Both the position numbers and the translations under genes were made by a program. Of a stretch of DNA of 64,000 bases, positions 19,953 to 38,200 are shown in pieces. The DNA lies in NCBI GenBank assembly GCA_965248195.1, contig CBDFIQ010000002.1, positions 32,001 to 96,000 of the forward strand, written 5' to 3'. Every line of letters begins with the position of its first letter. The first letter of the stretch is position 1. This DNA is from Longimicrobiales bacterium. Its GTDB lineage: Bacteria > Gemmatimonadota > Gemmatimonadetes > Longimicrobiales > Gaopeijiaceae. Below the pieces are notes generated by a model that was given only the letters and a program-made list of their open reading frames with translations, had not been told where the DNA came from and searched no databases.

Positions 19953-19982
19953 GGCGTTAGGCCCGGTCTCGTGGGGTCCAGG

Positions 19983-20775
19983 CCTGGAGTTGCTCGAGGA
20001 GCTCCGACCAGCTCTGCTGCGACTCCTCAGCGCCCAGCGTGACGGCCAGGAGCCGTCGGTGACCCTCAGGGCCCACTGCATACGCCACGAGCGCACTCAC
20101 GTTCTCGACTTTGCGGGCCCAGCGGGCGTCCAAGAACGTGGCGTCCAGGTACAGATAGGGGTGAGGCCCCTCGATCGGCGCACGGCGCAGCCCTTCCACG
20201 GCCTCGTCGAGCCGTTTTGCCACACGACTCACCGTCGAGCGCCCAACACGCTCGCCCATCAGCGCCTCGGTGACGTCGCCCATCTTGCGCTGTGACACGC
20301 CGCTCACATACGCCTCGACCATCATCTCGTCGAGCTCGGGGCTCCTGCGCTGGTAGCGGCCGATCACGTCGGCCGGCGAACCGTTGTCCCGGCTCCGGGG
20401 CATGGCGACCTCGATCTGCCCCAGGCTCGTCAGCAGCCGCCTCAGGTATGTGCCGTTCCTATGGTCCTTCCGGCTTCCCACCCGCTCGAAGCGGCGTGCA
20501 CCTACCATGGCCTTCAGCTCCTCTTCCAGCACCATCTCGAGCGTCAGCCGGATCGCGCCTTGAAACAGCTCGCGCAAATCATCGCGTAGCTCGTCTTGCG
20601 TGGCCCGACCGATCTCCACAATCTCTTGCATCGGAAGCTCCTCTCCGGTTCCGAGCCTGCTCTGCAGACCCGGACTCCCGGGTTCATGTGACAGTGAACA
20701 ACAACAGAGGAGCTTCCGTTTTTCTTTCCCTCCTGTCCAGCTTATCCGCTTTTACACAAATCTAGGGACACTACC
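19983..20775 (-). mobile_element. IS256-family element, copy 2, truncated (3' part of the transposase gene and one IR lost)
   Basis: Identical to copy 1 from the GGTAGTGTCCC IR to ...ELLEQLQ, then diverges. No TSD. Confidence 0.92.
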
Positions 20776-22019: not shown

Positions 22020-22367
22020 ATGAACCGTCTTGTACTGCCGTTCATTATCGGCTCGCTTCTTTTCCCGATGGGCTGCGGCGACTCGACTGGGCCGAAGCTT
22101 GCTAGCGTCGATGTCAGTCCGGCAACGACGACCTTGGCGGTGATCGGCGGCACGGTCCAGTTTACCGCCATTGGCCGGGATTTGAATGGGAATGCGATCA
22201 TAAGCGGGGGATTTGTCTGGTCGTCCTCCAACCCGCAGGTGGCGACCGTGGGCGAATCCAGCGGTCTGGCCACGGCGGTGGCAAACGGGAGCACCATGAT
22301 CTCCGCTGACAGCCCGTCGCTTCTTGGCCAGTCGGGGTCCGCTACGTTGACTGTGGCTGCACCGTAG
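22020..22367 (+). CDS. Lipoprotein with a bacterial Ig-like (Big_2) domain
   Basis: PMGC lipobox; VSPATTTL...WSSSNPQVATV...GLATAVANGSTMISA. Confidence 0.8.
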   Translation: MNRLVLPFIIGSLLFPMGCGDSTGPKLASVDVSPATTTLAVIGGTVQFTAIGRDLNGNAIISGGFVWSSSNPQVATVGESSGLATAVANGSTMISADSPSLLGQSGSATLTVAAP

Positions 22368-23583
22368 CTGGCCCGCGAGACGCCATCGGTCGGTTCGGCC
22401 GCGTCCGGGACGGAGCCATGCACACGATCAAAGGCCGCAGGGTATGAAGCACCTCGATGGTGTCGCCTTGGGCCTCAAGTACATCCGGAAGCCGGCGGTA
22501 CGCCTGGGGGGCTTCGTCTAGGTCGCCGCCGCGGAGCACGACGCCCTTGTCGTCCAGCCACGTTTGCATCTCTTCATGGCTGATTTTGCCCGGCCTCACC
22601 ATCCGCCCCTTCTTCCATTTGCCAGCGGCCTCCATCCTGCCCATCACGCGGCCCGCTCCGTGGACGGTGGAGAATAGAGCGTTCCCCTTCATCGCCCAGT
22701 CGTCGGGATCCGGGGAGTGTTGCCCCTGGAGGATCACCGAGTCGTCCCCCATCGAGCCGCCGACGAAACCCTTCTGGCCGGGGAACGCGGGTGTCGCTCC
22801 CTTACGTACAACGACCAACTCCTCGCCGTCGTGCTCCTCTTTCCACGCGAAATTGTGGTGATTGTGGACCAACTCCATTTCTTGCCCGCCGATGATCTCG
22901 ACGACCTTGCGTGTCACCCACTCGCGACCAGCGTAGGCGTACTCTCCGGCCAGGCTCATCGCTTCCCAATAGTCATGTCCCAGCGGGGTGGAGAGATCCA
23001 GCAACACTTCCGCGTTCATGTCGGGCCGGTCGCCCCAATAGAGACCTTGAGCTAGTGCGACGAAGTTGTGAGCGAGGTTGAAGCCGAGCGCCCGGCTCCC
23101 AAAGTGGACGCCCACCCATACCGCTCCCACCTCATCGGAGAACACGTCCACGTAGTGATTGCCACCACCCATCGTACCGAGTTGCGCCCGAGACTTCCCC
23201 TGAAGGTTACCTCGGTGCTTCCTCGGGATGACGGCCCACCTGGGGTCCTCGAACAGCGGATCGTCTTTCGGTGCGTCGTCGCAGGAGTTCGACATCCCCG
23301 GCCCGAACGCGATCGTATCGAAGATTTCGTCAGCCAGGTCGGGCAGGTCGTCCACCAGAGCTTCGGCAATCAGATCGGTGCGGATCGCCGCGTTCCCGCA
23401 GCCGATGTCCACCCCCACGCCGATCGGTGAGACCCTGTTCCGATACGCGGCTACGCCTCCGATCGGCATGACGTACCCCAAGTGCCCGTCGGCCATCAAC
23501 GCCGCCCGGTCTGCTCTTGAGGCAACATCGTTGAATTGCTCCAGGGTCTTGTCGTCATGAACTCCAAATACGTGTGAAATCAT
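22342..23583 (-). CDS. rtcB: RtcB-family RNA ligase
   Basis: MADGHLGY, GVDIGCG, QLGTMGGGNHY, HFGSR, HNHHN, RKGATP, HGAGR, DEAPQAYR. Confidence 0.92.
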   Translation of the reverse strand: MISHVFGVHDDKTLEQFNDVASRADRAALMADGHLGYVMPIGGVAAYRNRVSPIGVGVDIGCGNAAIRTDLIAEALVDDLPDLADEIFDTIAFGPGMSNSCDDAPKDDPLFEDPRWAVIPRKHRGNLQGKSRAQLGTMGGGNHYVDVFSDEVGAVWVGVHFGSRALGFNLAHNFVALAQGLYWGDRPDMNAEVLLDLSTPLGHDYWEAMSLAGEYAYAGREWVTRKVVEIIGGQEMELVHNHHNFAWKEEHDGEELVVVRKGATPAFPGQKGFVGGSMGDDSVILQGQHSPDPDDWAMKGNALFSTVHGAGRVMGRMEAAGKWKKGRMVRPGKISHEEMQTWLDDKGVVLRGGDLDEAPQAYRRLPDVLEAQGDTIEVLHTLRPLIVCMAPSRTRPNRPMASRGPATVQPQST

Positions 23584-23790: not shown

Positions 23791-25503
23791 TCACAGCACC
23801 TTGAGGTACTCCAGGAGCGCGGTCTTCTGCTCTTCCGTGAGCGACCTGAACTCGGTCTCATGGCCTGACCGGCCCCTTCCCGGCGAGCCGGTATCGTAGA
23901 GGGTCGGGCTGGACCAGGGGGTGTAGCCGGCTGGATAGCCGTACACGCCCGCATCGTCCCGCTCGCCGGCAATGCCCACGTGCTCGAAGTCGAGCATGTG
24001 CCCACCGACCATGAAACGGTCGGGCCGCATCTCGGGGTGCATCAAGTGCCAAAGCGTCGGGACCGAGCCGTTGTGCAGATAAGGCGCGGTCGCCCAGAGG
24101 GCCGTCAGAGGCTGCGCGACGTATCCGCCGGTGGTCGTCACGTCCAGGTATCGTCCGTACGGTGTGGCGTGGACCTCGTCGGCGAACTCTGCGGTCGCCA
24201 GCTCCCACCGGTGCGGGTCAGTGCCCATCGAGTCCTGCGGTACGAGTCGATTGGGGAAGCTGACCAGGACCACGTCCTCGAGGCCCTCCGAGAACTTGCC
24301 GTGACAGGCGGCGCAGTCCTGTTGGTAGATTCGCCGTCCATCCATCGCGAGAGCCGAATCGATCGAGCTCGGGAACGGCGGTGCGCGGAGCACCTCCAGA
24401 ATTTCCATGAAGTACCGAACGCCGTCGTAACCGTCACGCGCCTTGTTCGGCGGGACCCCCAGGGTCGGCACGACGAAGAAGGTCGTGATGTCGGCAAGTC
24501 CGTCGAGGTGCGTGTTGGTGACCTGCGCGAGCTGCATCTCCGCGAAGCGAGGTCGATGGGGTAGTCCGTACGTGCCGTCGTACAGCAAGGAACTCCGCAG
24601 GACTGTGCCACCGAGATCCGGGATGGACGTGAACGCCACCTCGGTGGCAGTCTCGTCCTCTCCCAACATGCCGAGGATGTTCTTGATCGACGCCACCCCG
24701 TTCGTGAGGCCCGCGCTCCCGTTGATGAACGGGAGCGGTGAGGCTCGCCCTCGCCACTCCTCTGCGAAGCGATCCCGGAGAAGGGGAAGCGCGTGATCAC
24801 GGATCGTGTCGCGCTCGCGGATCGACATATCCCCGAAAAGTGTGTCCATCGCTTCCCAGAACCGCTCCTCCTGGCCCTGGAAGTGGGCGAGGCTCCGAAA
24901 CAGTGTGGTCACATAAGCCTCGAGGTCGAGCGACGTGTTCGGGAGGCCGATCCAGGCGTCTCGAGTCGCGCGGCCGGTCTTGTCGTAGAGCACGCCGGTA
25001 TGGCACGCGGCGCATCCCACGTTTGCTCCCTCCAGCTCCACGGACGGGAACCCACGCGACATCGTGCCGCGCACGAGGCCGATGGGTCCGTCGAGCGCGG
25101 GCGGCGGGCCCCGCCAGTTGAGGATCGAGTCGGCTTGAATGAAGCCCATCTCGGCGAGCAGACGGGTGAGCGTCGCGAGCTCGAGCGGCAGACCCCCCTC
25201 GTCGTGGGCCTCGAGCACCATAGCCGTGGCGGCGACCTTCCACGGTACCGTGTGCCGGTCCAGGCCGTCCGTGTTGAGGCTGCCCCAGTCGTCATAGAAG
25301 AAGTGCGCCACTCCGAGCGCCGCCGGGTCACCACCGGCTTCTTCGATCGAAGAGACGGCGGGGTCGAGCCCGATCGGGCGACCCGAGGCGTACCCGCGGA
25401 GCAGCCTACCCGGCCATGCGCATCCGATAGCGAGGCCACAGAGAAGGACGACCGACGAGAAGCGAAGGACGACCAACGAAAAGCGGAAGACGTTCATAAT
25501 CAC
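23791..25503 (-). CDS. Exported di-haem c-type cytochrome, RoxA/MauG-like
   Basis: Two CAACH motifs; WATAPYLHNGSVPTL; C-terminal YDTGSPGRGRSGH...ALLEYLKVL; N-terminal signal. Confidence 0.8.
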   Translation of the reverse strand: MIMNVFRFSLVVLRFSSVVLLCGLAIGCAWPGRLLRGYASGRPIGLDPAVSSIEEAGGDPAALGVAHFFYDDWGSLNTDGLDRHTVPWKVAATAMVLEAHDEGGLPLELATLTRLLAEMGFIQADSILNWRGPPPALDGPIGLVRGTMSRGFPSVELEGANVGCAACHTGVLYDKTGRATRDAWIGLPNTSLDLEAYVTTLFRSLAHFQGQEERFWEAMDTLFGDMSIRERDTIRDHALPLLRDRFAEEWRGRASPLPFINGSAGLTNGVASIKNILGMLGEDETATEVAFTSIPDLGGTVLRSSLLYDGTYGLPHRPRFAEMQLAQVTNTHLDGLADITTFFVVPTLGVPPNKARDGYDGVRYFMEILEVLRAPPFPSSIDSALAMDGRRIYQQDCAACHGKFSEGLEDVVLVSFPNRLVPQDSMGTDPHRWELATAEFADEVHATPYGRYLDVTTTGGYVAQPLTALWATAPYLHNGSVPTLWHLMHPEMRPDRFMVGGHMLDFEHVGIAGERDDAGVYGYPAGYTPWSSPTLYDTGSPGRGRSGHETEFRSLTEEQKTALLEYLKVL

Positions 25504-26705
25504 CCCGGGCTCAGTAGCCTGGCATACTTCTGCAGCAACGCCATCTCCAGCATGGGATTATACGTACTCGTGAACTGCGGAAGATTTAGTAGTAGGAATG
25601 CGTACGGTTTCTGCGAGAGGAGCGCGACGTGTGTCATGCCGTTCTGCTCGAGAAGCCCGATGAGCTGCTCCGTCCCTTCACGATCGTCCTGACGCTTGCC
25701 GAGACCGGCCCTGAGGCTCGATAGCGTGCACACCGCATCTGCCCCGTCCAACACGTCCGCCATCTCCGCCGGCTCGTAAAGGTCCAGGTCCGATCCACGA
25801 ACGACTAAGTGCTCCCGAGCGAGGGGGAGGCGATAAAGCGAGTCGATGAAGTCGTTGATCGACCCGGTTCGTGCATCCAGGAGCCACCGGAAGAAGGAAG
25901 TGCTCTGGCTGTCGCGCCGCAGGCTCCTCAACCGCTCGAGAATGATGAAGAGCAAGACGAAGGAGAAGGACACGAAGAACATCGCGAAGTACAGGTCCGT
26001 GGCCCCGCCCGGGGCGAGGACCGCTAAGGTGCTGGTGACCACCAAAGCCCCGGCACCGACCCAGAACAGTTCTCGAACCACGAACACCCATGACTCATCC
26101 GGGTCCGTGAACCGCACGCAGACGTAGACGAAGATCAGGCCGCCGATCCCGCCGAGCCGGAAGTGCAGCCAGCTCGGAGCGATCTGGAGATCGGTCAGCG
26201 CGAGCACGAACGCGATGGCCAGGGCGGTCGTCACTCCCGTGATGAGGCGGTTCTCCATGGGAGCGTGTCCCCTCCGGTCCCGGAAGGCGACAACGAGAGC
26301 GAGCCCTGCGAAAGTTCCGAGCGTGACCACCTTGGAGATCGTCCAGAGGTCGTCCCGACTGACGAGAGGGACCAGGTTCAAAACGACGCAGGCCAGGGTG
26401 CCGACCGCCATGAACACCTTGAAAGAGGGACGTAGGTGTCGTCGCGTGAGCGCCTCCACAAACAGCCCCAGGGCCAGTGGGAGAAGTGTGGCCGGCACAA
26501 ACGAAGTCACCTGGAGGCGCTCGTCTTCCGTGAGCCAATAGAATCCTCTGCTGATGAAGAGCGCGGCCAGGCAATACAGCAGCACCAGCATCATCAGTTC
26601 GAGGTAGCTCCGGCTGCGATCTCGGTGGATATGCGCGATGTAGGCGATGGCTCCCGCGGCACCGACGAAGCTGAGGATCGGATCGGTCCAGGTCTCAAAT
26701 CCCAT
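25500..26705 (-). CDS. Polytopic membrane protein (about 8 TM) with a soluble C-terminal domain, function unknown
   Basis: Hydrophobic helices over roughly the first 255 aa; overlaps both neighbours. Confidence 0.7.
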   Translation of the reverse strand: MGFETWTDPILSFVGAAGAIAYIAHIHRDRSRSYLELMMLVLLYCLAALFISRGFYWLTEDERLQVTSFVPATLLPLALGLFVEALTRRHLRPSFKVFMAVGTLACVVLNLVPLVSRDDLWTISKVVTLGTFAGLALVVAFRDRRGHAPMENRLITGVTTALAIAFVLALTDLQIAPSWLHFRLGGIGGLIFVYVCVRFTDPDESWVFVVRELFWVGAGALVVTSTLAVLAPGGATDLYFAMFFVSFSFVLLFIILERLRSLRRDSQSTSFFRWLLDARTGSINDFIDSLYRLPLAREHLVVRGSDLDLYEPAEMADVLDGADAVCTLSSLRAGLGKRQDDREGTEQLIGLLEQNGMTHVALLSQKPYAFLLLNLPQFTSTYNPMLEMALLQKYARLLSPG

Positions 26706-27597
26706 CGGTCAGCCTCCGCATGAACCGTCGTACCAACCAGCCGAGTACCCAGGCTGTTGGCCGGCCTCTCGGCCGCTCGACACGCGCCGTCCATGGATTG
26801 AAGAAGTAGCCGCGATGATCGGTACCGGATCGCCTACCGAGGATGAGATTGATCGCCTCGAAGCACATGAGATTTCCGGCCGTGATCACCATGGGGGCGA
26901 ACGACATCCGGCTCCGCTCCCCGGTCAGCATCTCGGCGGCGATCTCTAGATCGAGATGGTGGCGGGAGGTAGAGTGGACGAGGACGTGCTCGATCTCCCG
27001 ACGCAGGCAGGTGTCTTCGTCCTCCGAAGAGACCTCGGTCCACGCCTTGTCCAACGTCGGGAAACGGAGTCGCTCCTCCGGCCGAGGGTCGCTTGGCCCG
27101 ACGACGTAGACCGACGGGAGAGGCGACGCATAGGCGTCGATCACCGTGGCTCCGTGCTCGCGGGCCTTCCGGTACAGCTGCACGCCGCTCGGGATGTGAT
27201 CCATGCCGTTGATCACGATCGGGTGCTCCGGAAGTAGGTCGTCGAGCTGCTCGATCCATTCCCCTGCCCGGGTCGTGACGTCCAGCTCGGGATTGATCGT
27301 GAGGAGCTGTCCGCGGACGGCCTCCACCTTGTTCTCACCCACCGTATCCATCGAGGCGAACACCTGGCGGTTCAGGTTGGACAGCTCGAAGCGATCGATA
27401 TCGGCGATCGTGAGCTTGGAGACGCCCGCTCGGGCGAGCGAGAGCGCACAGGCACCACCCATGCCCCCCACGCCACAGACGAATACTTCCGCACCTCGGA
27501 TCCGCTCCTGCTCCGCCTCGGTGACGAAGCCGATGTTGCGTTGCACGAACTCGGCGTAGTCGAAGGCCGAAGCTGGCGGCGGGTTCATTTCTTCCAT
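26695..27597 (-). CDS. ThiF/MoeB/E1-superfamily adenylyltransferase
   Basis: FDYAEFVQRNIGFVTEAEQ, GVGGMGG, DIDRFELSNLNRQ, INGMD; lacks Zn-binding CxxC pairs. Confidence 0.88.
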   Translation of the reverse strand: MEEMNPPPASAFDYAEFVQRNIGFVTEAEQERIRGAEVFVCGVGGMGGACALSLARAGVSKLTIADIDRFELSNLNRQVFASMDTVGENKVEAVRGQLLTINPELDVTTRAGEWIEQLDDLLPEHPIVINGMDHIPSGVQLYRKAREHGATVIDAYASPLPSVYVVGPSDPRPEERLRFPTLDKAWTEVSSEDEDTCLRREIEHVLVHSTSRHHLDLEIAAEMLTGERSRMSFAPMVITAGNLMCFEAINLILGRRSGTDHRGYFFNPWTARVERPRGRPTAWVLGWLVRRFMRRLTDGI

Positions 27598-28529
27598 GGT
27601 CTCAAATCGCGGAATTGGGTGCCGGCGCTGAACCAGTGGAGCATCGGGAGGAGGACGGAGCCTCCGAGTAGGAAGAGCGCCTGATAGAGGATGGACCCGA
27701 GCGATCGGCGAGGCACGGAGCGCAGGAGGTACCGCCTGGCGGTGGGAAGCCTGAACTGACCGATCTGGAGGAAGTCGTCTCCCCGATCGTAGTCGAGCTC
27801 GGTAGCGCAGACTTCGTTGTGCGAGTCCTGTCGATGTTTGGGAGCCGCGTCGAACGTTTTCTTGAGATTGTCGGAACCACCTGTGTAAGAGTCGGTGATG
27901 ACGAAGCGCTCGACGTCGAAGCCCGCTTCGTCGGCCACGCCGAAAACGTGTCGATGATCGGCCATGATTTGGCGGGCGATCGTAAGATGATTGTACGACC
28001 TCCGTGTCTCCCCGGAGCCTGACGGGAAGACATCGTCGAAGCTCTCAGATACCATGCCGAACACGGCTGGGACCTGGGTGACACTGCTGATCCAGAGAGG
28101 TCTCAGCTGCCGGTGGAAGAAGGTGAGCATCACGCTCAGTCCGTAGAGCACCCACGAGAGCCGCTTGCTCCGGAAGTCCGGATCGACCATGACCAGGCCC
28201 ATGTGGAGCAAATCCTCCTGGACGCCTCGAACATCCAGTGTGATGAGGGACAACGCGTTGAACGCAACCGGTCGGTTGGCCCCACATTCGTAGAGCACGG
28301 TCAGGACTGCGCGGTCGAGACAATCGGAGTTGCCGGTCAGGACGCCGTATTCGAGGGGCCCTCCCTCGAGCGAGCTCGCCGCGACCGTGCGCAAGTCTTC
28401 GACGAGGTCCTGAAGCTCATCAGGGGACATCCACAGACCCGGGCACTCCACGACACGTGCCCGCTGGTTGTTCGCGACGGAAAGCTCGACGTCGAGATAC
28501 CTGGCGCTCAGCTTGCGAATGCGCACCAT
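27585..28529 (-). CDS. GNAT-fold putative acyltransferase
   Basis: HMGLVMVDPDFRSKRLS resembles GNAT motif A; translationally coupled on both sides. Confidence 0.6.
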   Translation of the reverse strand: MVRIRKLSARYLDVELSVANNQRARVVECPGLWMSPDELQDLVEDLRTVAASSLEGGPLEYGVLTGNSDCLDRAVLTVLYECGANRPVAFNALSLITLDVRGVQEDLLHMGLVMVDPDFRSKRLSWVLYGLSVMLTFFHRQLRPLWISSVTQVPAVFGMVSESFDDVFPSGSGETRRSYNHLTIARQIMADHRHVFGVADEAGFDVERFVITDSYTGGSDNLKKTFDAAPKHRQDSHNEVCATELDYDRGDDFLQIGQFRLPTARRYLLRSVPRRSLGSILYQALFLLGGSVLLPMLHWFSAGTQFRDLRPWKK

Positions 28530-29567
28530 CTAGACCAGCAACTCGTCGGGTGGAAGGCGCGGGCTCTTAGGGGCGCCGTCCGGTGGGGCCTTCCCTACTC
28601 GGAACACGTTGATCACGGAAGCGTCTGGTTCGAGTCCACACCGTGTGCGCAAGCTCGCGCACTCGTCGAGATCGTCGGCCAACGCCGACATAGGGCATGC
28701 GCTCAACCCGCGGCGTGTGAGCTCGAGCCAGATCCGGTAGAAACTCCGGCCGGCCTCGAACCAGCCAGCGCTCTGACCCTGGTGGAGAACCAGCAGCGCA
28801 GCGGCAGAGCGGGTCGCACCGGCCTCGGCAGTGGCGAGTCGACCGAGGCCCGTGAGCTTCAAAACTCTGAACATGCCTGGCCTGAAGAGCATGACGGCTG
28901 CCCGAGCTTCGAGGGACGACATCGCCATACAGTCGGCGGTCAGGCCATCGCGTTGCCAGTCGGGGTGCGCCGGTGTGAAGCGGAGCCATGCATAAAGCTC
29001 GGCCTGCAACTCGGGGATCTCGAGGAACCGATAGGAGCTCCGGTCGTGGGCGCACGCCAGGTCGGCGATCTCTGTCGGAGCATCGATGACGGAGAGGCCC
29101 TCCTGAGTGTCGGCGAGACTTCGGACGCTCTTGAGCGCACTCGGGTCCGCCTGGAACCGGCTGCGGTAGCTTCGCCGGAGGGTGACAAACTCGGCGAGCG
29201 GTTCGCGGGCTCCTATCTCCGCGAGGGTGGTGCTGGCGACCAAGCGATATGGCCCTCCGTCGGTAGCCCCGCCCTCCGTTGGGTCCCCGAGGTCGAGGTC
29301 CGCCAGGTCAGGGGCACTGAGGCCGAGCCCGCGACAGGATAGAGCCAGGCTCATGCCCTCGAAGGCCGCTCCCAGGCTGACCATCGCGTCCTTTCCGGTC
29401 GGGTCCGCGAAAGGGACGCGCCTGCTCACGTCCACCAGCAAAAGCACACGCCCTCCCGGCAGAAACCGCCACCTGGCCGGCTGCGTATTGTGCGCGCTCG
29501 GAGACCGGTTCGCCTCGGCTACAAGGGCCAGAGCGTCCTCGCGGGTGAGGTCGACCATCGGGCTCAT
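28530..29567 (-). CDS. Nitroreductase-fold FMN protein (Acg-like, duplicated domain)
   Basis: ANRSPSAHNTQPARWRF, SLGAAFEG, RRSYR, AGRSFYRIWLELTRRGL, FRVG...KSPRLP. ATG overlaps the upstream TGA (TGATG). Confidence 0.85.
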   Translation of the reverse strand: MSPMVDLTREDALALVAEANRSPSAHNTQPARWRFLPGGRVLLLVDVSRRVPFADPTGKDAMVSLGAAFEGMSLALSCRGLGLSAPDLADLDLGDPTEGGATDGGPYRLVASTTLAEIGAREPLAEFVTLRRSYRSRFQADPSALKSVRSLADTQEGLSVIDAPTEIADLACAHDRSSYRFLEIPELQAELYAWLRFTPAHPDWQRDGLTADCMAMSSLEARAAVMLFRPGMFRVLKLTGLGRLATAEAGATRSAAALLVLHQGQSAGWFEAGRSFYRIWLELTRRGLSACPMSALADDLDECASLRTRCGLEPDASVINVFRVGKAPPDGAPKSPRLPPDELLV

Positions 29568-30673
29568 CAGAGGGGTCTCCGGAAGAGATGAAGCCGATGG
29601 AGCGGCCGACCCCCCAGCTTCTCCACCTGGCGGAGGCTGGCCTTGTTCTCGTCCGCGATCCACGTCAAGCCGAGGTGCGTGTAGCCAGCACCCTTGAGAG
29701 CCGTCGTGACACAATGGAGCATGGCCGGGTTCAGTCCCTGTCCCCACATCGACGGATGTACGGCCCAAAAGATGATCACCGCGCGACGGCGGTTCCCCAA
29801 ATACTTCAGGTAGCGGAAGGGGAAGGAGGGGCCGAACCGGGAGCCCGCGCTCTTCAGCAGGGGATTCAGGTCGGGAATACAGACCACTACGCCGACCGGT
29901 TCGTCCTCTCGGTACACGAGGTGGGACAGCCGCCCGTCGATGATCCACATCATCTCCTCGGCCTGGAAGAAGAACTCCTTCCTTGTGGGGGGCACGAACA
30001 TCGGGTTCCGGTCGAAGCTCACGTTCAGAACCGTGCGCATGTCCTCCAGCTGCCTACGGAAGCCGCGCCGCCGTATCGGGACCCAGCGCAGTTCGCTGCG
30101 GTCGAGCAACTCCTGGACCTTTGGATTCACCATTCGCTCGGCGGCGAACCCATCTAGCTCGAGCTCATGCGTAGTCATGGGGAAGAACGGCTCGAAGCCG
30201 CATTCAACAAGAAGACGCGGGATGTGTTGGGGGTTGTAGTGCATGTCGGTGTAGGCCGGGTTCCCGAAGCCCTCGGTCACGATGCCGATCTGTTGCATCG
30301 CTGTGAGATTGAAGTTGCCGGCAAGCTCCTCACACCCTTTCTGCCTACTCCACTCGGCTGCAGCTCCGAGCAACTCGCCTGCCACCTCCACGTCGTCCAC
30401 GCAATCGAAGAAGCCGAAGTAGGCTCGCCTGAGGCCATGGCGCTCGTTGGAATCGTGGTGGACATGTGCTACGACGCGCCCGAGCGACTGGCCATTACGA
30501 CGGACGCTGAAGTAGGTGAAGTCCCCGTGGTCTCTGAAAAGCGGATTCTTCCGGCCGTCCAGGAGCCGGGCGAGATCCGAGCGCATGAGGGACGTGAACA
30601 CGGGGTCGTCCCCGTACGAGTCGAAGGGGGCGGCGAAGAAGCTGTCGAAGTCGCGTTCGCAGAGTTCGTTCAC
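29567..30673 (-). CDS. Tandem-GNAT N-acyltransferase (YghO / bacterial ceramide synthase-like)
   Basis: GRVVAH...AYFGFFDCVDD.EVAGELL..AAEW, GNFNLT, YNPQH, IPDLN, AVHPSMWGQGL, TWIADEN. Confidence 0.75.
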   Translation of the reverse strand: MNELCERDFDSFFAAPFDSYGDDPVFTSLMRSDLARLLDGRKNPLFRDHGDFTYFSVRRNGQSLGRVVAHVHHDSNERHGLRRAYFGFFDCVDDVEVAGELLGAAAEWSRQKGCEELAGNFNLTAMQQIGIVTEGFGNPAYTDMHYNPQHIPRLLVECGFEPFFPMTTHELELDGFAAERMVNPKVQELLDRSELRWVPIRRRGFRRQLEDMRTVLNVSFDRNPMFVPPTRKEFFFQAEEMMWIIDGRLSHLVYREDEPVGVVVCIPDLNPLLKSAGSRFGPSFPFRYLKYLGNRRRAVIIFWAVHPSMWGQGLNPAMLHCVTTALKGAGYTHLGLTWIADENKASLRQVEKLGGRPLHRLHLFRRPL

Positions 30674-30682
30674 GGATCCGTC

Positions 30683-31885
30683 CTAAAAGAACAGGGTGAA
30701 ACTGAGCGACAGGTACTTGTCGAGCCGCCGAACGAACGTCGGCTCGTCCGAGGAATTGCCACCGAAGAGACGGCCGTCGAGCTCCACCGTCGCCCGGTCG
30801 CTTATCCTCCGGGATGCCGTGGCGGACGTGATCACGTTGCCACTCCGATAGTCGACCAAGGTGCGGCCCGAGACGGTCCAATCCTGCGTGAGGAGCCGGG
30901 CTCCGACGAAGAAATCGTTCTCCGTAGATGCCGTCGCGTCCTCTCCCCTGCCGTCGTACAGGTACTCGACGAAGACGCTCAGGTATGGGGCGAGCGCGTA
31001 CTCGAGGCCGCCAACGACTGCATAGAACTCCTCGAAGTCCGAAGCGCGGCGGAGCAACTCGACCTTCAGAAGTAGGGCGTCGCGCGTCCACTGTGCGTCG
31101 AGACTGGTCTGATTGATCTGGTCGTAGAACGGGATCCAACCCCGACCACCCCCGACCTGGGGTGATGGCTCGAAGCGCGGGTCGCGGTTGGTCCCCGAGA
31201 AGTGGGCCACGCCGAGGTCGAAGCCCCCCACGAAGTGGCTCCAGCGGAGGGCCCAGTCTATGTGTTCACGGCCCCGCTCGTGCTCGAACTCAACCGCGTC
31301 CTCATCGACCGGCAGCGAGGACCAGAGTGCTCCCCCTCGTCCCGCGAAACTCCGCTCCCGAAAGTACGGAAGCACGTAGCCCTCGAAGCTCCCCAGCGAC
31401 GTGAACGTCTTGAGGTTGAGGAGCGGCTGACCGAGCCGGCCCGGCGCCGGCGCGTCTTCCCCGAAGTCCCGCTGGTTGATCACGTCTACGAGCGCGACCG
31501 ACTCCGCCACGCCCCAGTTGAGCTGTCTCATGCCGACCGCAACTTCCCAGTCGTCCCAGATCTTCTCCCACACCAGATCGCGGAAGTCGAGGCGAGTTCG
31601 CGACTCGTTGTTCGGGTCGATGCGGATGAAGGGTGCGACGGTCAGGATCTGGGACCGGTCGTCCCATGTGAGTGAGCCTTCGACTTGCACGGTGAGGCTC
31701 AGCTCGTGGCGCGGGGCTTCCCCCGGGGCACTGTCGGAATAACCACGGGTGCCGATGGCTGCGCTTCCCGACCACTGCGCGGAGGCGGATGCTGGAGCGA
31801 CACCCCAGCAGGTGATCACGAATGCCAGCGTGCGCGTGAGGGAAGGATGTCGGACGCCTTCACCGGGTCGTCGAGGTAGTTGCAC
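30683..31885 (-). CDS. Outer-membrane beta-barrel protein of the MMPL/LolA-like transport trio
   Basis: Signal peptide ending ASA-Q; WGVAES..LVDVINQ, LPYFRER; C-terminal LSFTLFF. Confidence 0.72.
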   Translation of the reverse strand: MQLPRRPGEGVRHPSLTRTLAFVITCWGVAPASASAQWSGSAAIGTRGYSDSAPGEAPRHELSLTVQVEGSLTWDDRSQILTVAPFIRIDPNNESRTRLDFRDLVWEKIWDDWEVAVGMRQLNWGVAESVALVDVINQRDFGEDAPAPGRLGQPLLNLKTFTSLGSFEGYVLPYFRERSFAGRGGALWSSLPVDEDAVEFEHERGREHIDWALRWSHFVGGFDLGVAHFSGTNRDPRFEPSPQVGGGRGWIPFYDQINQTSLDAQWTRDALLLKVELLRRASDFEEFYAVVGGLEYALAPYLSVFVEYLYDGRGEDATASTENDFFVGARLLTQDWTVSGRTLVDYRSGNVITSATASRRISDRATVELDGRLFGGNSSDEPTFVRRLDKYLSLSFTLFF

Positions 31886-31892
31886 GGGGCGG

Positions 31893-32669
31893 CTACCTGC
31901 GTCCCAGGCGCCGAGGATCGAAAACCCCGTCGCTCAGATCGGTCGCGAAGGCGTACTCGCTCCACTCCAAGGTGGTGGACTTCCCCGACGCGAGCTCGTT
32001 CATGACCATACGGTCGAGACGCCACTGTCCGCCCTTGTACTGCTGGTATCCTTCGACCCTCAGCGACTTCACGTGTGTGTCTTCGCGATCGTAGTAGTCC
32101 ACCCGAAGGAGCCTGTACTCTTCCGTGTCCATCCAGAGTACCTGCCGCGCGTATGCCGACCCGTCGTCGAGCGGAAATCGCTCCAGGACGTGCGAGGCAG
32201 TCCCATCCAGCGTCTCCTCTCTTAAGTACCGATATCGGTACTGCCGCAGATCCTGCGATCCGATGTCCTCGAATGTGAACTCGCTGCCCATGAACGAGCT
32301 GGACCGGTTGCTGGTCGCGATTCTCCGAGTACGTCGGATGGCCGGGAGATACAGCCATTGATCACTGGGCGAGTCGGGGTGCGAGACGGTGAGGATCGAC
32401 GTCCCCTGCAGGTCCCGGGGAAGATCGAAGACGACGAGCGTCTTGTCCCCGTCCTCGGGGACCTCGAGCCCGAGGATGTGCATCTCGCGGACCCGCTCCG
32501 AGCCGTCGGACCCCCTGAGAGTCATCGTCATCGCGGCGGTGAAGTCGGCATATCCCGACACACGGCGATCCGCTTCGTCGACGACCGCCCCTGCGCACGG
32601 GTCGGGGGCCTGCGCCCACGCGGGCGTGCCGATCAACAGGAGTGCTACAGGAAGGGTGAACTTGTTCAT
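31893..32669 (-). CDS. Outer-membrane lipoprotein-sorting (LolA-like, DUF1329-type) periplasmic protein
   Basis: PRDLQGTSIL, DQWLYLPAIRRTRRI, SFMGSEFTFEDI, VDYYDR. Confidence 0.85.
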   Translation of the reverse strand: MNKFTLPVALLLIGTPAWAQAPDPCAGAVVDEADRRVSGYADFTAAMTMTLRGSDGSERVREMHILGLEVPEDGDKTLVVFDLPRDLQGTSILTVSHPDSPSDQWLYLPAIRRTRRIATSNRSSSFMGSEFTFEDIGSQDLRQYRYRYLREETLDGTASHVLERFPLDDGSAYARQVLWMDTEEYRLLRVDYYDREDTHVKSLRVEGYQQYKGGQWRLDRMVMNELASGKSTTLEWSEYAFATDLSDGVFDPRRLGRR

Positions 32670-32684
32670 GAGCAGTATCCTCGT

Positions 32685-34991
32685 TCAGGTCCGAGTCGGA
32701 CCGATTCCGTTACGACTGGATGCCACCTCGATCAGCGAGGGAAGCGCGAACAGGTCGGCGAATACGGCGGCAACCACGCTGACCGCCGTCATCGTCCCGA
32801 CCAGTACCAAGACCTGGAATTGCGACATCAGAAGCAGGGAGAACCCGGCGCCCATCGCCAAGCTGGTCATCAGGATCGGCGGGCCGGTCTCGCGTAGCGT
32901 GTCCTCTACGGCATCTCGAACGCTCAGATTGGCCGCCAGATGGTCTCGCAGCTTGGACAGGAAGTGGAGCGTGTCGTCCACCGCCAACCCGAATGCGATG
33001 GAGAAGACCAGTATGGTGGAGGGCTTCAGGTCGACGCCCAGAACCTTCATCGCGGCCATCAGCATCAGGAGCGGGAAAACGTTCGGGACGAGGCCGAGGA
33101 GCCCGAGCTTGAACGAGCCGAACATGCGCACCATCGCCGCGAAGACGAGCACGAGCGCGATGAGCAGGCTCGGCCCGAACGTCTTCACGAGGCTGGACTG
33201 GTAGGTCTGCGCCATTTGCGCCGTCCCCGTGGGTGCAGCCGTCCCGATCGGTGGCGGATCGTTCGTGAGGAAGGCCTCGATGCGCTCGAGGAGGGGCAGC
33301 ATCAATACCGAGCCCTCGTCACGCACGGAGAGGACGATCTGTGCCACGCCCGCGTCCCGCAGGTACACGTCCTCCACCCTGCTCTGCTCGTTCATTTCGG
33401 CGAGGAAGAGCAGCTGCGCGGCTTCCTCCTCGCTCTGAGGCAGACCGGTCTCTTCGTCTCCGACGATCCCCCGGCGGAGCTCGGCCATGAGGTCCGGGAG
33501 ACCCAGGGCCTTGAGGACCAGCGGCTCGTTCCGCGCGAAGTCCTCGAACCGCGCCATCCAGGCCAGCATCTCGGGATCGTGGAGGACGCCGTCACCTTCG
33601 CCGCGGATGAACAGATTGACCTGAAAGACGCCGAAGCCGTGCGCCTCGATCCAGTCCAGGTCCTGCACGGGAGCACTCTCGGGCCCCATGTCGTCCATGA
33701 TGAACGTGTTCACCCTGAGGGTGGATCCCATGGTAAGACCGACAGCGCTGATGATCGCGAAGGAGAGGACCGCCCAGGACGCGTGCCCACCAGACAGTGA
33801 CAGCGCGCCTCTCAACGTCGCACGGATCCAACCGGGACTCAGGCCGCGATCGTTGAACTTCAGCCTGGCGGTGAAGCCCAGAAGCGCCGGCAGGAGCGTC
33901 ATGCTGAAGACGTACGTCAGCAGGATCGCCACCGCCGTGAAGAACCCAAATTCCATGATGATGCCGATTCGTGTTCCGACCAGGCTGAGGAACCCGATGG
34001 CGGTCGTGGCCGACGTATAGAAGCACGCGATCGAAAGCGCGGAGAACGTGCGGGCGATCGCTTCCTCGTTATCCTTGAGCTCGCTCCGGTCGTGGCGATA
34101 GCGAGCGAGCAGGTGGATCGCATCGCTGACCCCGACCACCAGCACGATGATCGGAATGAAGCTGGTGAGGATGCTGATGCTACGACCGCTCAGCCCGAGC
34201 AGGGCAACTGCGCACAGGTACGCGGGGAGCACTGAGGTCAGGCAGAGCATGACGTGGCCAAGGTGCCGGAAGAAGTAGAAGAGGATACCGCAGAAGACGA
34301 GGAAGCCGCCGCCGAGGAAAAGTGCCTGATCCACCTCGAGCATCTTCGGGATGCGAGAACGGAATACCGGCACTCCTGCCAGGGTGGCTCTCGTCGCAGC
34401 GTCGTCTATGTTCTCCAGCGCCTCCGTGATTGCCCCTTCTATCTCGGTGCGACGCGCATGCGTGTTGAGCTCGGGCTCGAGATATCCGGAGACCGTGAAT
34501 ACGGATTGGTCCTCATTCCACAACAGACCACTGAAGAGCTCGTTGGCCCGGTGGCGGTCCAACATCCCGCGGATCATCGCGTCGGAGAGCTCGGGCTCTT
34601 CGACGAGGCGATAGAGGTGGGTCGCCACCTCACCGTCCAGATCGACGGTCTCGGTGACCTCCGTGTTGCCGAACCACTGGACGTCTATGAGCCCGGCGTC
34701 CTCGAAGACTTCGGCCACACGCTCGAGGTCGTGGAACATCGGTAGCCCGGGGGCACGCTCGTCCTCCCAGAACATCGTGAACTGGGCGTCCTCTTTCTCG
34801 AAGTAGCGCTTGTAGTCGTCGTACGTCTCGCGCTCGACTCCGAACGAGGGGAAGAACTGCTCCATGCCGTAGTTGATCGGCACACGGCCACCGTAGACGG
34901 CTGCGGCCCCGGTCACCACCGCCGCGATCGCGGTCACCGAGCGTCGGTGCGCAACGATCCAGCGGAAGTACGCCTCTTTGTCGACGCTCAT
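32685..34991 (-). CDS. MMPL/RND-family transporter
   Basis: Two repeats with VGVSDAIHLL and GLAVDDTLHFL; TSATTAIGFLSL; AGGAGG RBS before the ATG at 34991. Confidence 0.9.
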   Translation of the reverse strand: MSVDKEAYFRWIVAHRRSVTAIAAVVTGAAAVYGGRVPINYGMEQFFPSFGVERETYDDYKRYFEKEDAQFTMFWEDERAPGLPMFHDLERVAEVFEDAGLIDVQWFGNTEVTETVDLDGEVATHLYRLVEEPELSDAMIRGMLDRHRANELFSGLLWNEDQSVFTVSGYLEPELNTHARRTEIEGAITEALENIDDAATRATLAGVPVFRSRIPKMLEVDQALFLGGGFLVFCGILFYFFRHLGHVMLCLTSVLPAYLCAVALLGLSGRSISILTSFIPIIVLVVGVSDAIHLLARYRHDRSELKDNEEAIARTFSALSIACFYTSATTAIGFLSLVGTRIGIIMEFGFFTAVAILLTYVFSMTLLPALLGFTARLKFNDRGLSPGWIRATLRGALSLSGGHASWAVLSFAIISAVGLTMGSTLRVNTFIMDDMGPESAPVQDLDWIEAHGFGVFQVNLFIRGEGDGVLHDPEMLAWMARFEDFARNEPLVLKALGLPDLMAELRRGIVGDEETGLPQSEEEAAQLLFLAEMNEQSRVEDVYLRDAGVAQIVLSVRDEGSVLMLPLLERIEAFLTNDPPPIGTAAPTGTAQMAQTYQSSLVKTFGPSLLIALVLVFAAMVRMFGSFKLGLLGLVPNVFPLLMLMAAMKVLGVDLKPSTILVFSIAFGLAVDDTLHFLSKLRDHLAANLSVRDAVEDTLRETGPPILMTSLAMGAGFSLLLMSQFQVLVLVGTMTAVSVVAAVFADLFALPSLIEVASSRNGIGPTRT

Positions 34992-35096: not shown

Positions 35097-35202
35097 TACT
35101 TCTGCTTGCGCCCACCGGCCTGCTCTCGGATGTTGATCTTGGTCCGATCACGTTGACCCGATCCGGCAATGGGCCTTTGTTTTTCCTATCCCTGGCGCAC
35201 TG

Positions 35203-38200
35203 ATGACAGAGCTCACACGCCACCTCGCCGCGGTGATGTTCACCGACGTGGTGGGCTATACAACCATCATTGCGGAGGACGAGAAGGCTGGGCTCGCCGC
35301 CCGCAAGAGGCACCGGGATGCCCTGGAGACGGCCATCGCCCACAGCAATGGTCGGCTCATTCAGTACTTCGGCGACGGTAGCCTGAGCATTTTCCCCAGT
35401 GCCGTTGTGGGCGTCACCGCGGCAATCGCGGTCCAAAGGCACCTCCACTCGGCTCCGAGCCTCCCCGTTCGAATCGGCCTGCACGTCGGCGACATCGCCT
35501 ACGATGAGCAAGGGGCGTACGGCGATGCCGTCAACATTGCCTCGCGGATCGAGAGCCTAGCCGTTCCGGGTGGGATCCTGATCTCGCGTAAGGTCGTCGA
35601 CGAGATCAGGAATCATCCGGAGCTCCCGACCGTACGGCTCGGCACGGTCGAGCTCAAGAACGTGCGTGACCCGGTAGAGGTGTATGCGATCTACACTGAA
35701 GGCGTCGAGGTCCCCAGACCCACTGAACTGGCAAGAGAGGGAGACGGGTCCGCCGCCGAACATGCGTCCCCTCTTCCGGAATCTCTGCGGGCCCACCTCG
35801 ACCGAATGCAACCACGCCTCGTTTATCGTGAGCGCGGGACCGGAGCGTTCCCACGAACTCTGCCCTTCGTGGGCCGTGCGGCGGAAATGGATGCACTCCG
35901 AACGCTATTGGAGACCACTCAGTCGGGTCGGGGCGGAACCGCCCTGATCTGTGGCGATCGCGGGGTCGGAAAGTCTCGACTCGCTGAGGCTGTGGCACAG
36001 CACGCTCGCGAACGCGGCTGGTTGGTCGCACTCGGTCGTGCCTACCCGGCAGAAAGGCTGGTCTCGTTCGCGCCGCTGTCGGATGCGCTTGTTCCGATCC
36101 TTCGAGGGATCGATGCGACGACCCTCCAAGCGTTAATAGGGGACGAGAACCTCATCTATAACCTGTTCCCAGCATTGGGGCCCAGCTCGCCGAGCCTCGG
36201 TCTCAGATACGCAGACCCGACCGAACTGCAGGCACGGCTCTTCGACCGCCTTACGGCCCTCCTGATCCGCCTAGCCGAACATCAGCCCATACTGATCATC
36301 TTGGAGGATCTCCAGTGGTCGGACGAGTCGTCAATCGAGTTCCTGCATTTTGTCGCCCGCCAGACTGCAAACGAGCCTATATTCTTCATCTGCCAGTACA
36401 GCGAGCACTACCTTGCACACGACCACCCCCTGCGCACGGTTGAGCAGTCGCTTCTCAGGATCAACGTCGCGACACGCTTCCAGCTCGACCCGCTGACCAT
36501 GCGCCAGACTGAGGACCTCGTCCGAGAGGCTTTCGAGGCAAAAGATCCCGCGGTTTCGCAGTTTGCCAGCAAGCTATTCCATTGGACCGGCGGCAATCCC
36601 TTGTTCCTCGAGGGCACGCTGCGCGCTCTAGTCGAGACACGGCATCTTTTTCAGGAAGACGGAGCTTGGCGTGGCTGGCAAGTCGAAGAGTTCGACGTGC
36701 CGCGATCGGTGCGGGATCACCTGCTCGCACTTGCCGGAGAACTCTCGCCAACCGCCCGCCAAGTCGCTGACCTCGCCTCAGTGATCGGCGTACGCTCATC
36801 ACATGACGTCCTCGAGTCCGTGTGTCAACTGAATGAAGACCAGCTGGGAGAAGCCCTGGACGAGCTTCAACGGGCCCAGATTCTGGCCGAGGTGGATCTG
36901 GATCGGGCGATCGGGTACGACTTCTGCCATCCACTGATTCGGGAGACGCTTCAGTTCCACCTTTCGGCCACACGTCGCCGCGCTTTACATGGTCACGTGG
37001 CCCACGCCCTTGAGCAATTCTACGCGGACCGGGCAAGGGCTCATGCGGCCGAGTTGGCCCACCACTTTGCACGCGCGCATAGGCGAGGGGCCGGTGCGAA
37101 GGCCGTGCTCTACCTGGCGCTGGCGGGTAAGGATGCGTTGTCACGGCAAGCGAATCCGGAAGCGGTCAAGCATCTGCGTGCGGCTCTCGACCAGATCGAT
37201 GGCACGGGGTGGAAAGCCGGAAGCGAAGGATTCGATCAGCTGATCGATTTCGACACCGACGACATCGTGAAGGCCCTCGCCCGCGCCGAGACCAGGCTCG
37301 GCAACTATGAGGCAAGTATAGACCTCTGGAGGCGGGCGCTGGCGGGCGCACACACCAGGGACGACAGCCGCCAGTTGGCCGGCATCCACCGCGAGATCGG
37401 GCTCGCTTTCTTCTGGGATGCTCGTCTGGAAGAGGCGCAAGATGAGTTCCAGGAAGGTCTGCGCGTGGCCCGAGCCATAGGCGAAGATCTGATGGTCGCG
37501 AGCATCGACCTCTCATCGAGCTTGTGCTATCAGCATGTGGGACGACAACAAGAGGCACGCCAGGCGGCTGAAGAATCACTGAGCCTGGGAGAGAAACATG
37601 GCAATGTACCTCTCCTGGCGCGGGCTCACATTTCGATGGCTCGCCTGCATCTGTGGCTGGGCGAGCCAGACGCGGCGAAGATCCACAGCGAAAAAGCGCT
37701 CGAGCTCGCCACGGAGTGTGGTGATCCGGGCGTGGTTTACTGGAGTCACTGGGCGACCGGGGTCATGGAGGGTATGCGAGGCAACACTCGCGAGATCGCT
37801 CTCCGCATCGAGGCGATGAACCAGATCGTCGACGACGTGCGCTCGCCAACCTTGAAGCTCTGGACCGCCGAACTCTCCATCGAGCACGCCTACTGCTATG
37901 GAGATTGGGACGCCGGAATGGAGCTGGGGGAGTCGGCTGTCGATCTCGCTCGCTCGCTGAACCAGAAGACCCTCCTGCCTCGACTTCTCGTGTGGCTTTC
38001 CCTGATTTACATCGGCCGTGGTGACTTCGACCGGGTGAAAGAGCTCACGGACGAGGCGTGGGAGGTATCCGGCGCCGATCTTGCCGCCGATCAGAGCGGG
38101 TTCATTGACGTCCACACGGTGGTTCCGGCGCACATCGGACGAGCGGCGTACCACCTCGGCGTCGAAGAATGGCAAGAGGCGATTCGTGTGGGTGAGGCCG

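Follow-up and report, generated by a model that had tools for sequence, protein, structure and literature searches.

What kind of pathway is encoded by an operon that places two GNAT-fold proteins and a ThiF-family enzyme beside a nitroreductase-type flavoprotein, a membrane protein, a di-haem cytochrome, and three putative lipid-transport proteins? The operon occupies positions 23,791 to 34,991 of a 64,000-nucleotide stretch of DNA (the whole of which is referred to here as the window) from contig CBDFIQ010000002.1 of a Longimicrobiales bacterium (Gemmatimonadota; GCA_965248195.1), the genome of which comprises 4.86 Mb in two contigs. Six of its genes, coding for two GNAT-fold proteins denoted as G1 and G2, the ThiF-family enzyme (ThiF), the membrane protein (TM), a flavin-dependent oxidase (FDO), and the cytochrome, form a cassette that spans the Alpha-, Beta-, and Gammaproteobacteria, Gemmatimonadota, Acidobacteriota, and other taxa. 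Based on co-occurrence and layered losses, the unit kept by selection is the pair of G2 and TM, to which ThiF, FDO, G1, and the cytochrome are repeatedly lost additions. The chemistry of ThiF acting with a flavoprotein is known; the core families, G2 and TM, are uncharacterized. We assign a probability of roughly 0.45 to the reading that the cassette produces a fatty-acid amide lipid and then modifies it, in a membrane-bound pathway with oxazolone-type activation.

All nine open reading frames (ORFs) were confirmed. They lie on the minus strand and run from position 34991 to position 23791 in the order that a preliminary description of this DNA had given:

32685..34991, minus strand: MMPL/RND lipid transporter, 768 aa (PF03176, 108 bits); clade-specific addition
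31893..32669, minus strand: LolA-like periplasmic carrier, 258 aa (PF17131, 193 bits); clade-specific addition
30683..31885, minus strand: predicted outer-membrane beta-barrel, ~400 aa (DUF2490, E 0.026; C-terminal Phe); clade-specific addition
29567..30673, minus strand: G1, a GNAT of the YghO/bCerS superfamily, 368 aa (PF00583 at residues 242-354)
28530..29567, minus strand: Acg-type flavin-dependent oxidase (FDO subgroup of nitroreductases), 345 aa (PF00881)
27585..28529, minus strand: G2, an unannotated single GNAT-fold protein, 314 aa (AlphaFold model); core gene
26695..27588, minus strand: ThiF/E1-family adenylating enzyme without zinc cysteines, 297 aa (PF00899, 126 bits)
25500..26705, minus strand: TM, a membrane protein, 401 aa (AlphaFold2 model); core gene
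23791..25497, minus strand: RoxA-like di-haem c-type protein with a predicted lipoprotein signal, 568 aa (PF21419, 71 bits)

With the starts used here, the gaps between consecutive genes from MMPL to the cytochrome are 15, 7, 9, -1, 0, -4, -11, and 2 bp, in keeping with the earlier account of nine co-oriented genes separated by 15 bp or less. The G+C content of the region (63-65%) is similar to that of the remaining window, and searches for a sigma-70 promoter and a terminator at the operon yielded nothing above the level of shuffled sequence. No NCBIfam match of the nine proteins attains its cut-off, and G2, TM, and the barrel are without a confident family in Pfam or NCBIfam. All nine genes are found in this order also in G005/L084 (80-91% identity), L180 (G2 87% identical), and L188 (G2 64% identical), and the grouping is therefore not due to chance. 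A further locus, L006 (G2 58% identical), has the six-gene order of the window in the absence of MMPL, the LolA-like carrier, and the barrel (hereafter the trio).

The distribution of the cassette was evaluated using the best 80 of at least 570 G2 relatives in GTDB genomes plus two loci from relatives (82 genome loci), of which 70 had at least 6.5 kb downstream of G2 and were denoted as long (the 12 shorter ones were dropped). A protein search recovered 2780 relatives of G2, and the nearest named ones, among the best 80 of at least 570 loci, were from Gemmatimonadota metagenome-assembled genomes. The hosts of the 82 rows of the G2 tree were affiliated with the Pseudomonadota (63), Gemmatimonadota (10), Acidobacteriota (2), Myxococcota (1), and Bdellovibrionota (1), with five unassigned. 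TM adjoined G2 in 81 of the 82 loci. Among the long loci, TM was identified in 69, ThiF in 56, FDO in 53, G1 in 51, and the cytochrome in 37; all six genes were present in 34 and G2 and TM alone in 13. The commonest arrangement, G2-ThiF-TM-G1-FDO with the cytochrome convergent, was observed in 32 of the 70. Metagenomic loci (n = 80) gave a similar picture: TM was present in every one of the 51 whose downstream sequence extended to 1.5 kb or more, and 10 of the 22 long ones contained all six genes. The gene set is thus conserved together in several phyla, as the preliminary description had supposed. It had, however, placed ThiF and the nitroreductase at the core and treated the membrane protein as a passenger, and neither assignment survives, since it is G2 and TM that form the invariant pair.

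At the scale of individual lineages the cassette is patchy: G2 was detected in 3 of 41 related genomes, and of 151 genomes from the phylum, two had a strong TM match (four weak partial matches were left out). The full cassette occurs in most main branches of the G2 tree (82 rows), on which the number of state changes was one for TM, seven each for ThiF and the cytochrome, and 10 each for G1 and FDO. Three genomes with a locus comprising only G2 and TM encode no cassette-type ThiF anywhere else. FDO lacked ThiF in 1 of 53 FDO loci, and the cytochrome lacked G1 in 1 of 37 cytochrome loci. G1 tends to travel with the cytochrome, and the two are mobile as a pair, being co-located on a separate contig of a Mesorhizobium genome (L179), adjacent to each other in L085, and as a second pair, 46-48% identical and on the opposite strand, in a single population represented by L005 and L181-L187. 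Gene fusions (G2-ThiF in P0121, P0123, and L006; ThiF-G1 in P0122) tie the cassette enzymes together, although the clusters that bear them are small and some may reflect sequence errors. In Shinella, G2, TM, and FDO carry the RefSeq label hypothetical.

Several of these loci have unusual architectures. The sole locus without TM (L085; G030:C210:11013-15604) comprises G2-ThiF-G1-cytochrome, and its G2 is shortened and sits on a long branch. L005 and L181-L187 are mosaic: upstream lie a window-like G1 (91%) and FDO (82%), the LolA, barrel, G2, ThiF, and TM homologs are more distant (53-77%), and the second G1 and cytochrome pair precedes MMPL, which suggests recombination between cassette copies. 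An apparent loss of FDO in L005 was rejected as a contig-end effect, based on L181-L187 from the same population.

The best NCBIfam model for ThiF was PRK08223 (114 bits; cut-off, 266) and its top PDB sequence match was MoeB. Eight ATP-site residues (R17, G42, D63, D65, N71, R74, K87, and D130) align with MoeB R14, G41, D62, D64, N70, R73, K86, and D130 and are all kept, and MoeB cysteines C172, C175, C187, C244, and C247 are all absent. The length, the N-terminal motif, and the lack of zinc cysteines are held in common with the ThiF domains of ThiF-FDO fusions. In BLAST comparisons, ThiF scored 71-107 bits against 22 OxzB-like proteins, 75 bits against MoeB, and 57 bits against TcdA. A quick tree of 59 rows, with support given by the Shimodaira-Hasegawa-like approximate likelihood ratio test (SH-aLRT), placed 22 cassette ThiFs in a single clade (support 100) that was separate from MoeB/ThiF, from TcdA, and from a clade of 22 OxzB-like/PRK08223-like proteins plus one long-branch row (98). 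The OxzB-like references were obtained in an NF011424 search of 300 gammaproteobacterial genomes and are homologs, not characterized enzymes. A ThiF grouping with TcdA or MoeB had been named at the outset as grounds for abandoning the oxazolone proposal; what was found instead is a clade of its own without the zinc cysteines.

FDO matched NF047509 at 154 bits (cut-off, 199), and Acg (2YMV) was its only PDB match. The FDO profile also matched all eight FDO regions of the fusions, along with other FDOs (E 2e-9 to 7e-28). In the available text of PMC12856293, Acg is the nearest solved relative of the TrzS oxidase domain, and Kleetz et al. regard there a ThiF gene that neighbors both an FDO and an acyltransferase as diagnostic of oxazolone pathways. 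In agreement with the preliminary description, the flavoprotein belongs to the Acg/FDO type that these pathways employ.

The candidate acyltransferase of the core, G2, had no Pfam or NCBIfam match (PF17327 included), and profile searches with G2 and TM against PDB sequences returned nothing below E 0.5. An AlphaFold model of G2 (mean predicted local distance difference test, pLDDT, 86.6) shows a single GNAT domain that carries insertions, the protein having a hydrophobic helix at its C terminus, and its fold matches are to generic GNATs (best Z 11.1; root-mean-square deviation, rmsd, 3.2; 173 residues aligned). An acyl-CoA loop of the form V-D-P-x-x-R-x-x-G is present in most of 44 sequences, with Arg replacing that Gly in the window copy. 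His109, Gln152, and a YTGGS motif are invariant, and His109 may be the base given its modeled position at the start of strand 4.

In the pathway that we favor, G2, docked on TM, would form a first N-acyl amide. ThiF would adenylate the carboxylate of this product and close it to an oxazolone (azlactone), which the Acg-type flavoprotein would desaturate, as in the oxz, tyz, and trz systems, to leave an oxazolone or the dehydro-amino-acid form. G1 would then add a second acyl or amide linkage and the RoxA-like lipoprotein would oxidize the product on the periplasmic side. Only in the clade of the window would MMPL, the LolA-like carrier, and the barrel move the lipid outward. This pathway and the alternatives considered below overlap in part and are not fully exclusive.

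A number of observations weigh against the oxazolone-type pathway. The branch that unites the cassette ThiFs with the OxzB-like clade has a support of only 70 in the quick tree, the likeness of ThiF to OxzB-like proteins lies chiefly in the N-terminal half, and a single TrzS-like protein reached only 40 bits against the cassette ThiF. PF21926 and PF13444, both present in all six tested neighbors of OxzB-like genes, matched neither G1 nor G2, and comparison of both GNATs with FeeM-like acyltransferases beside ThiF-FDO fusions gave no hidden Markov model (HMM) match and an hhalign probability of 0.2%. Since neither GNAT is detectably FeeM/OxzA-like, the cassette is not a member of the oxz/tyz/trz group. 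These comparisons were made by way of unnamed homologs of OxzA, OxzB, TyzA/B/C, TrzA/S, FeeM, and bCerS and not with the characterized enzymes. In other bacteria, clusters of ThiF, FDO, and an acyltransferase have been described without an observed oxazolone (producers of stieleriacine, kyonggic acid, and thalassotalic acid; available text of PMC12479983). The sample of loci is biased to close relatives and contains kin groups, the flanks of 52 sampled neighbors are mostly unrelated to lipids, and sign tests of co-loss on independent pairs were not significant in the results shown (median p 0.06-0.25; 5-8 pairs).

The alternative that survives best, though we regard it as unlikely, is membrane-lipid remodeling without an oxazolone, in which G2 and TM (as a scaffold or translocase) would acylate a head group, ThiF would only activate a carboxylate, and transfer of this carboxylate to an amine by G1 would yield a diacyl amino lipid. 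Full-length matches of the G1 profile were obtained to Escherichia coli YghO (167 bits; 23% identity) and, within this genome, to the GNAT of an spt-like locus (154 bits; 25% identity); the latter two are 31% identical to one another. A search of G1 against the PDB returned nothing below E 0.38. Its description as YghO/bCerS-like therefore holds at the level of the superfamily. It is also this bCerS-like protein that is fused to ThiF in P0122, and hydrophobic or basic helices predicted in G2, ThiF, and G1 would suit docking at a membrane. Moreover, several of the loci with G2 and TM alone lie near Aas, PlsC, PAP2, or PspA genes; phospholipid genes near such loci include those for a CDP-alcohol transferase and a cytidylyltransferase (L008), PAP2 and PlsC (L057), and Aas (L086, L044). 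The relationship of G1 to the spt-linked GNAT and these phospholipid neighbors agree equally with the favored amide-lipid pathway. Lipid-related neighbors, however, come from few related groups, with most flanks being unrelated, and the near-constant presence of ThiF with FDO (52 of 53 loci) is a better fit to cyclization and desaturation.

The spt-like locus lies just beyond the window (G000:C2:102967-107400; L158:7967-12366) and comprises genes for a YghO/bCerS-like GNAT, a DXD glycosyltransferase, an Spt-like aminotransferase (NF047600, 444 bits; cut-off, 640), and an epimerase-like protein, with a sulfotransferase, a Stealth protein, and two ketosynthase genes nearby. Judged from this gene content, it is likely a sphingolipid locus in a Gemmatimonadota genome. 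Because its GNAT gene stands beside the Spt-like and epimerase-like genes, that GNAT is the likelier ceramide synthase of the genome, and G1 probably has another role with similar chemistry. In a second Gemmatimonadota genome, an Spt-like gene is followed by a G1-like GNAT gene (30% identity; G428:C10:285593-288900; L159). A GNAT-Spt fusion in that genome was considered and rejected, since it arose from a shadow reading frame over two adjacent genes. As a separate observation, genes for the acyl-ACP phospholipid acyltransferase Aas and/or YiaAB, PspA/IM30, and TetR proteins directly adjoin the cassette in the Rhizobiaceae and in some further alphaproteobacterial hosts (L015, L026, L029, L042, L060, L081, L086, and kin), hinting at membrane stress.

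The second alternative, which we likewise consider unlikely, is that G2 and TM are a signaling pair, TM being a seven-transmembrane (7TM)-type receptor without an output domain of its own, G2 a ligand synthase or switched enzyme, and the remaining proteins tailoring or destroying the signal. The TM model (pLDDT 86.5) comprises nine N-terminal helices, one of them short, followed by a cytoplasmic alpha/beta domain of 140 residues; hydropathy alone gave seven segments. This corrects the earlier designation as an 8-TM protein. The top 50 structural matches of TM were all to G-protein-coupled receptors (GPCRs) or GPCR-like proteins (Z 11.9-15.0; best rmsd 4.3 over 207 aligned residues), but helical models commonly reach Z of about 14 against this structure library, and the fold in itself does not reveal a function. 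These matches included no bacterial sensor and barely covered the cytoplasmic domain, and a Foldseek search with TM returned nothing below E 0.07. The sole Pfam family matched by more than two TM members was 7TMR-DISM_7TM, and weakly so (12 of 119; best E 1e-5). LuxN and PrsK have the architecture of a helical bundle followed by a cytoplasmic domain. Homology of TM to PrsK was rejected, since an alignment that seemed collinear had hhalign probabilities of 0.6-2.7%, no better than a reversed control (1.6%) or shuffled ones, and a LuxM/LuxN locus was sought but not found in 300 gammaproteobacterial genomes.

The TM family forms a closed set, with 619 clusters (50% identity) retrieved at E 0.001. 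Among the best 150 of the 619, nearly all members are of ~400 aa, and neither these nor a weak search for longer forms yielded a C-terminal extension or a fusion to a kinase or cyclase, such as might be expected of a sensor. R53, E84, H90, and K96 are invariant in 119 sequences (mean column identity 31%) and D172 nearly so. Given the basic loops, the N terminus would be outside, placing R53 and D172 at the predicted outer face and E84, H90, K96, and E151 in a cluster at the predicted cytoplasmic face, where a conserved partner would dock; a receptor could be built in this way. Prediction of a complex of G2 with TM gave a score of 0.43 as compared to 0.00 for the best control, with contacts that agree between runs to at least 97% and a partner pLDDT of at least 77. 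Of 157 solved complexes, 116 attained the mark for such scores, as did 2 of 215 mismatches, and scores of 0.60 or less comprised 18 of the solved complexes and both mismatches. This points weakly to binding of G2 to TM, as both the favored pathway and the signaling alternative would have it. A signaling role might also be read from the acyl-homoserine-lactone (AHL) synthases among the fold matches of G2 (Z 8.8-9.8), but these do not stand out from other GNATs, and the flanks contain no conserved regulator. More doubtful again is a hybrid of this alternative with lipid synthesis, in which TM would be a GPCR-fold protein that uses its bound GNAT as the effector, such that a membrane signal controls the synthesis of a new class of lipid amides that the other enzymes diversify.

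The cytochrome and the trio bear on a third alternative, that of a catabolic operon. The cytochrome has CxxCH motifs at 162 and 395, and two such motifs were present in all 36 full-length copies (38 examined). Its N terminus is a lipobox or signal anchor, with a lipobox in 21 of 38 copies by a crude pattern. NF040606 was matched at 144.6 bits (cut-off, 150), and RoxA, RoxB, and RoxC models at 53-73 bits as compared to cut-offs of 900-1000. RoxA (4B2N) is nevertheless the nearest solved structure, with which the cytochrome is collinear (profile E 2e-24), and a PYxHNGSVP motif, a distal His, and a C-terminal GH motif are present, such that the earlier description as RoxA-like is sound. By extrapolation through an ungapped extension of 17 residues, the near-invariant F341 would fall on RoxA F317, which is required to hold O2 (available text of PMC6797691); the region of F301 was unaligned, and the PDB numbering of RoxA agrees with the literature at His195. 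A second RoxA-like protein is encoded at G000 C2:2848578-2849195 (34% identity over the C-terminal 213 aa).

The trio was identified in 3 of the 82 genome loci (L004, where it is cut, L005, and L084), with MMPL itself in two, and also accompanies the cassette in L180, L188, and L181-L187; all trio-bearing loci have a G2 at least 64% identical to that of the window. HAE3/MMPL models in NCBIfam were matched below their cut-offs. Elsewhere, L227 has an MMPL that is unrelated to that of the window (25%) and L013 a distant LolA-like gene. The third protein was called an outer-membrane barrel on account of its C-terminal Phe, its place beside the LolA-like gene, and the DUF2490 match, and it remains a predicted one. 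A paralogous trio is encoded at G000:C2:572417-575680 (MMPL 28%, LolA-like 45%, and barrel 37% identity). Because the trio was retained across the rearrangement in the L005 population, the link between trio and cassette is suggested to be real in this clade. The export route of the preliminary description is hence a clade-specific addition. Which way the trio transports cannot be read from the families involved, since in Thalassolituus a similar module, an MMPL-LolA fusion with an adjacent porin, is induced on long-chain alkane (available text of PMC6304351).

Such a module, together with the RoxA haem motifs of the cytochrome, could be taken to mean that the trio imports a hydrophobic compound that the RoxA-like enzyme cleaves and the remaining proteins activate in pieces. 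This is very unlikely, as the trio and the cytochrome are the parts most readily dispensed with, a GNAT and a membrane protein make up the core, and no conserved beta-oxidation genes lie nearby. Finally, action of ThiF on a sulfur carrier, ubiquitin-like protein, tRNA, or precursor peptide, with a superficial likeness to oxazolone systems, would agree with its MoeB match and with the substrates of most characterized ThiF enzymes (proteins, peptides, or tRNA; available text of PMC12596934) but is most improbable given the absence of all five MoeB cysteines, the separate cassette clade, and six abutting genes that leave no internal room for a carrier gene (flank ORFs <90 aa were not screened).

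Around the operon, an RtcB-family RNA ligase (PF01139) is encoded at window positions 22342-23583 (minus strand), 207 bp past the operon; L061 is the sole further locus that links such a gene with the cassette. Upstream, a divergent gene at 35203-38721 (plus strand) codes for a 1172-aa guanylate/adenylate cyclase-AAA ATPase-TPR protein that is not a conserved neighbor. In a short stretch upstream of the operon, at 35099-35140, many unrelated contigs start or stop and depth jumps, as with a small repeated element. Flanking the region are ORFs at 19957-20631 and 39331-40784 (both minus strand) that, from their translations, we take to resemble a truncated IS256-type transposase and an IS3-type element.

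We found no paper on this cassette in a search that left most subscription papers and supplements uncovered, and network tables of PMC12856293 and PMC10404671 may hold its ThiF or FDO sequences; within that scope, the impression that the combination of genes is not a described pathway was upheld. Known chemistry is joined here to two uncharacterized families, G2 with at least 570 matches in GTDB species genomes and TM with 619 clusters, as well as to a RoxA-like enzyme and a bCerS-like GNAT. The cassette occurs in the cultured and tractable genera Shinella, Ensifer, Mesorhizobium, Cupriavidus, and Arenimonas, and natural versions with two, four (G2-ThiF-TM-FDO, the Mesorhizobium type), five (the Shinella/Ensifer type), and six genes (the Cupriavidus type) make a stepwise dissection possible. 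Such work could lead to a new class of lipids and might reveal the substrate of a RoxA-like protein that does not act on rubber, the role of a bCerS relative outside ceramide synthesis, and possibly a new bacterial use of the 7TM fold.

Like RoxA (4B2N; PMC6797691, available text), the cytochrome has two CxxCH motifs, PYxHNGSVP, and a C-terminal GH motif in a collinear arrangement, but it is ~100 aa shorter and membrane-anchored. G1 aligns over its full length with E. coli YghO and the spt-linked GNAT; the substrate that bCerS acylates, at the inner membrane, is a long-chain amine (available text of PMC11087976). In contrast to the ceramide pathway, spt and cerR are found neither in the operon nor in the sampled flanks, and the spt-linked GNAT is another gene ~40 kb away. 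TM may resemble 7TMR-DISM and other bacterial 7TM sensors in its predicted GPCR-type helical bundle and the cytoplasmic domain that follows, but it is a stand-alone protein of 400 aa that carries neither a kinase nor a cyclase, and homology to PrsK was not detected. The NasY/ThiF/nitroreductase clusters (PMC12479983) follow the same split logic of three enzymes in Gram-negative hosts, yet they employ N-acyl amino acid synthases (NAS) and yield N-acyl dehydrotyrosines, and the available text mentions no TM, G1, or cytochrome.

The oxzAB (bioRxiv 10.1101/2020.06.11.147165) and trzAS (PMC12856293) systems, in the texts available, are two-gene operons with a fused ThiF-FDO and an acyltransferase of another family, whereas the cassette ThiF belongs to a separate clade and is fused with GNATs instead of FDO. 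They nonetheless share with the cassette an N-acyltransferase, a ThiF, and an FDO, as well as the ATP-site Asp of ThiF and Acg as the nearest solved FDO. In tyzACB (PMC10404671), TyzA is FeeM/AHL-synthase-like by structure, which G2 is not to any detectable degree, and TM, a bCerS-like GNAT, and a di-haem protein are not described in the available text. The genes for ThiF and the oxidase are already separate there, and the split between them is thus not the novelty that the preliminary description had made of it. Like the cassette, tyzACB places a separate ThiF cyclase and an Acg-type FDO beside a GNAT-fold N-acyltransferase, with an MMPL gene adjoining.

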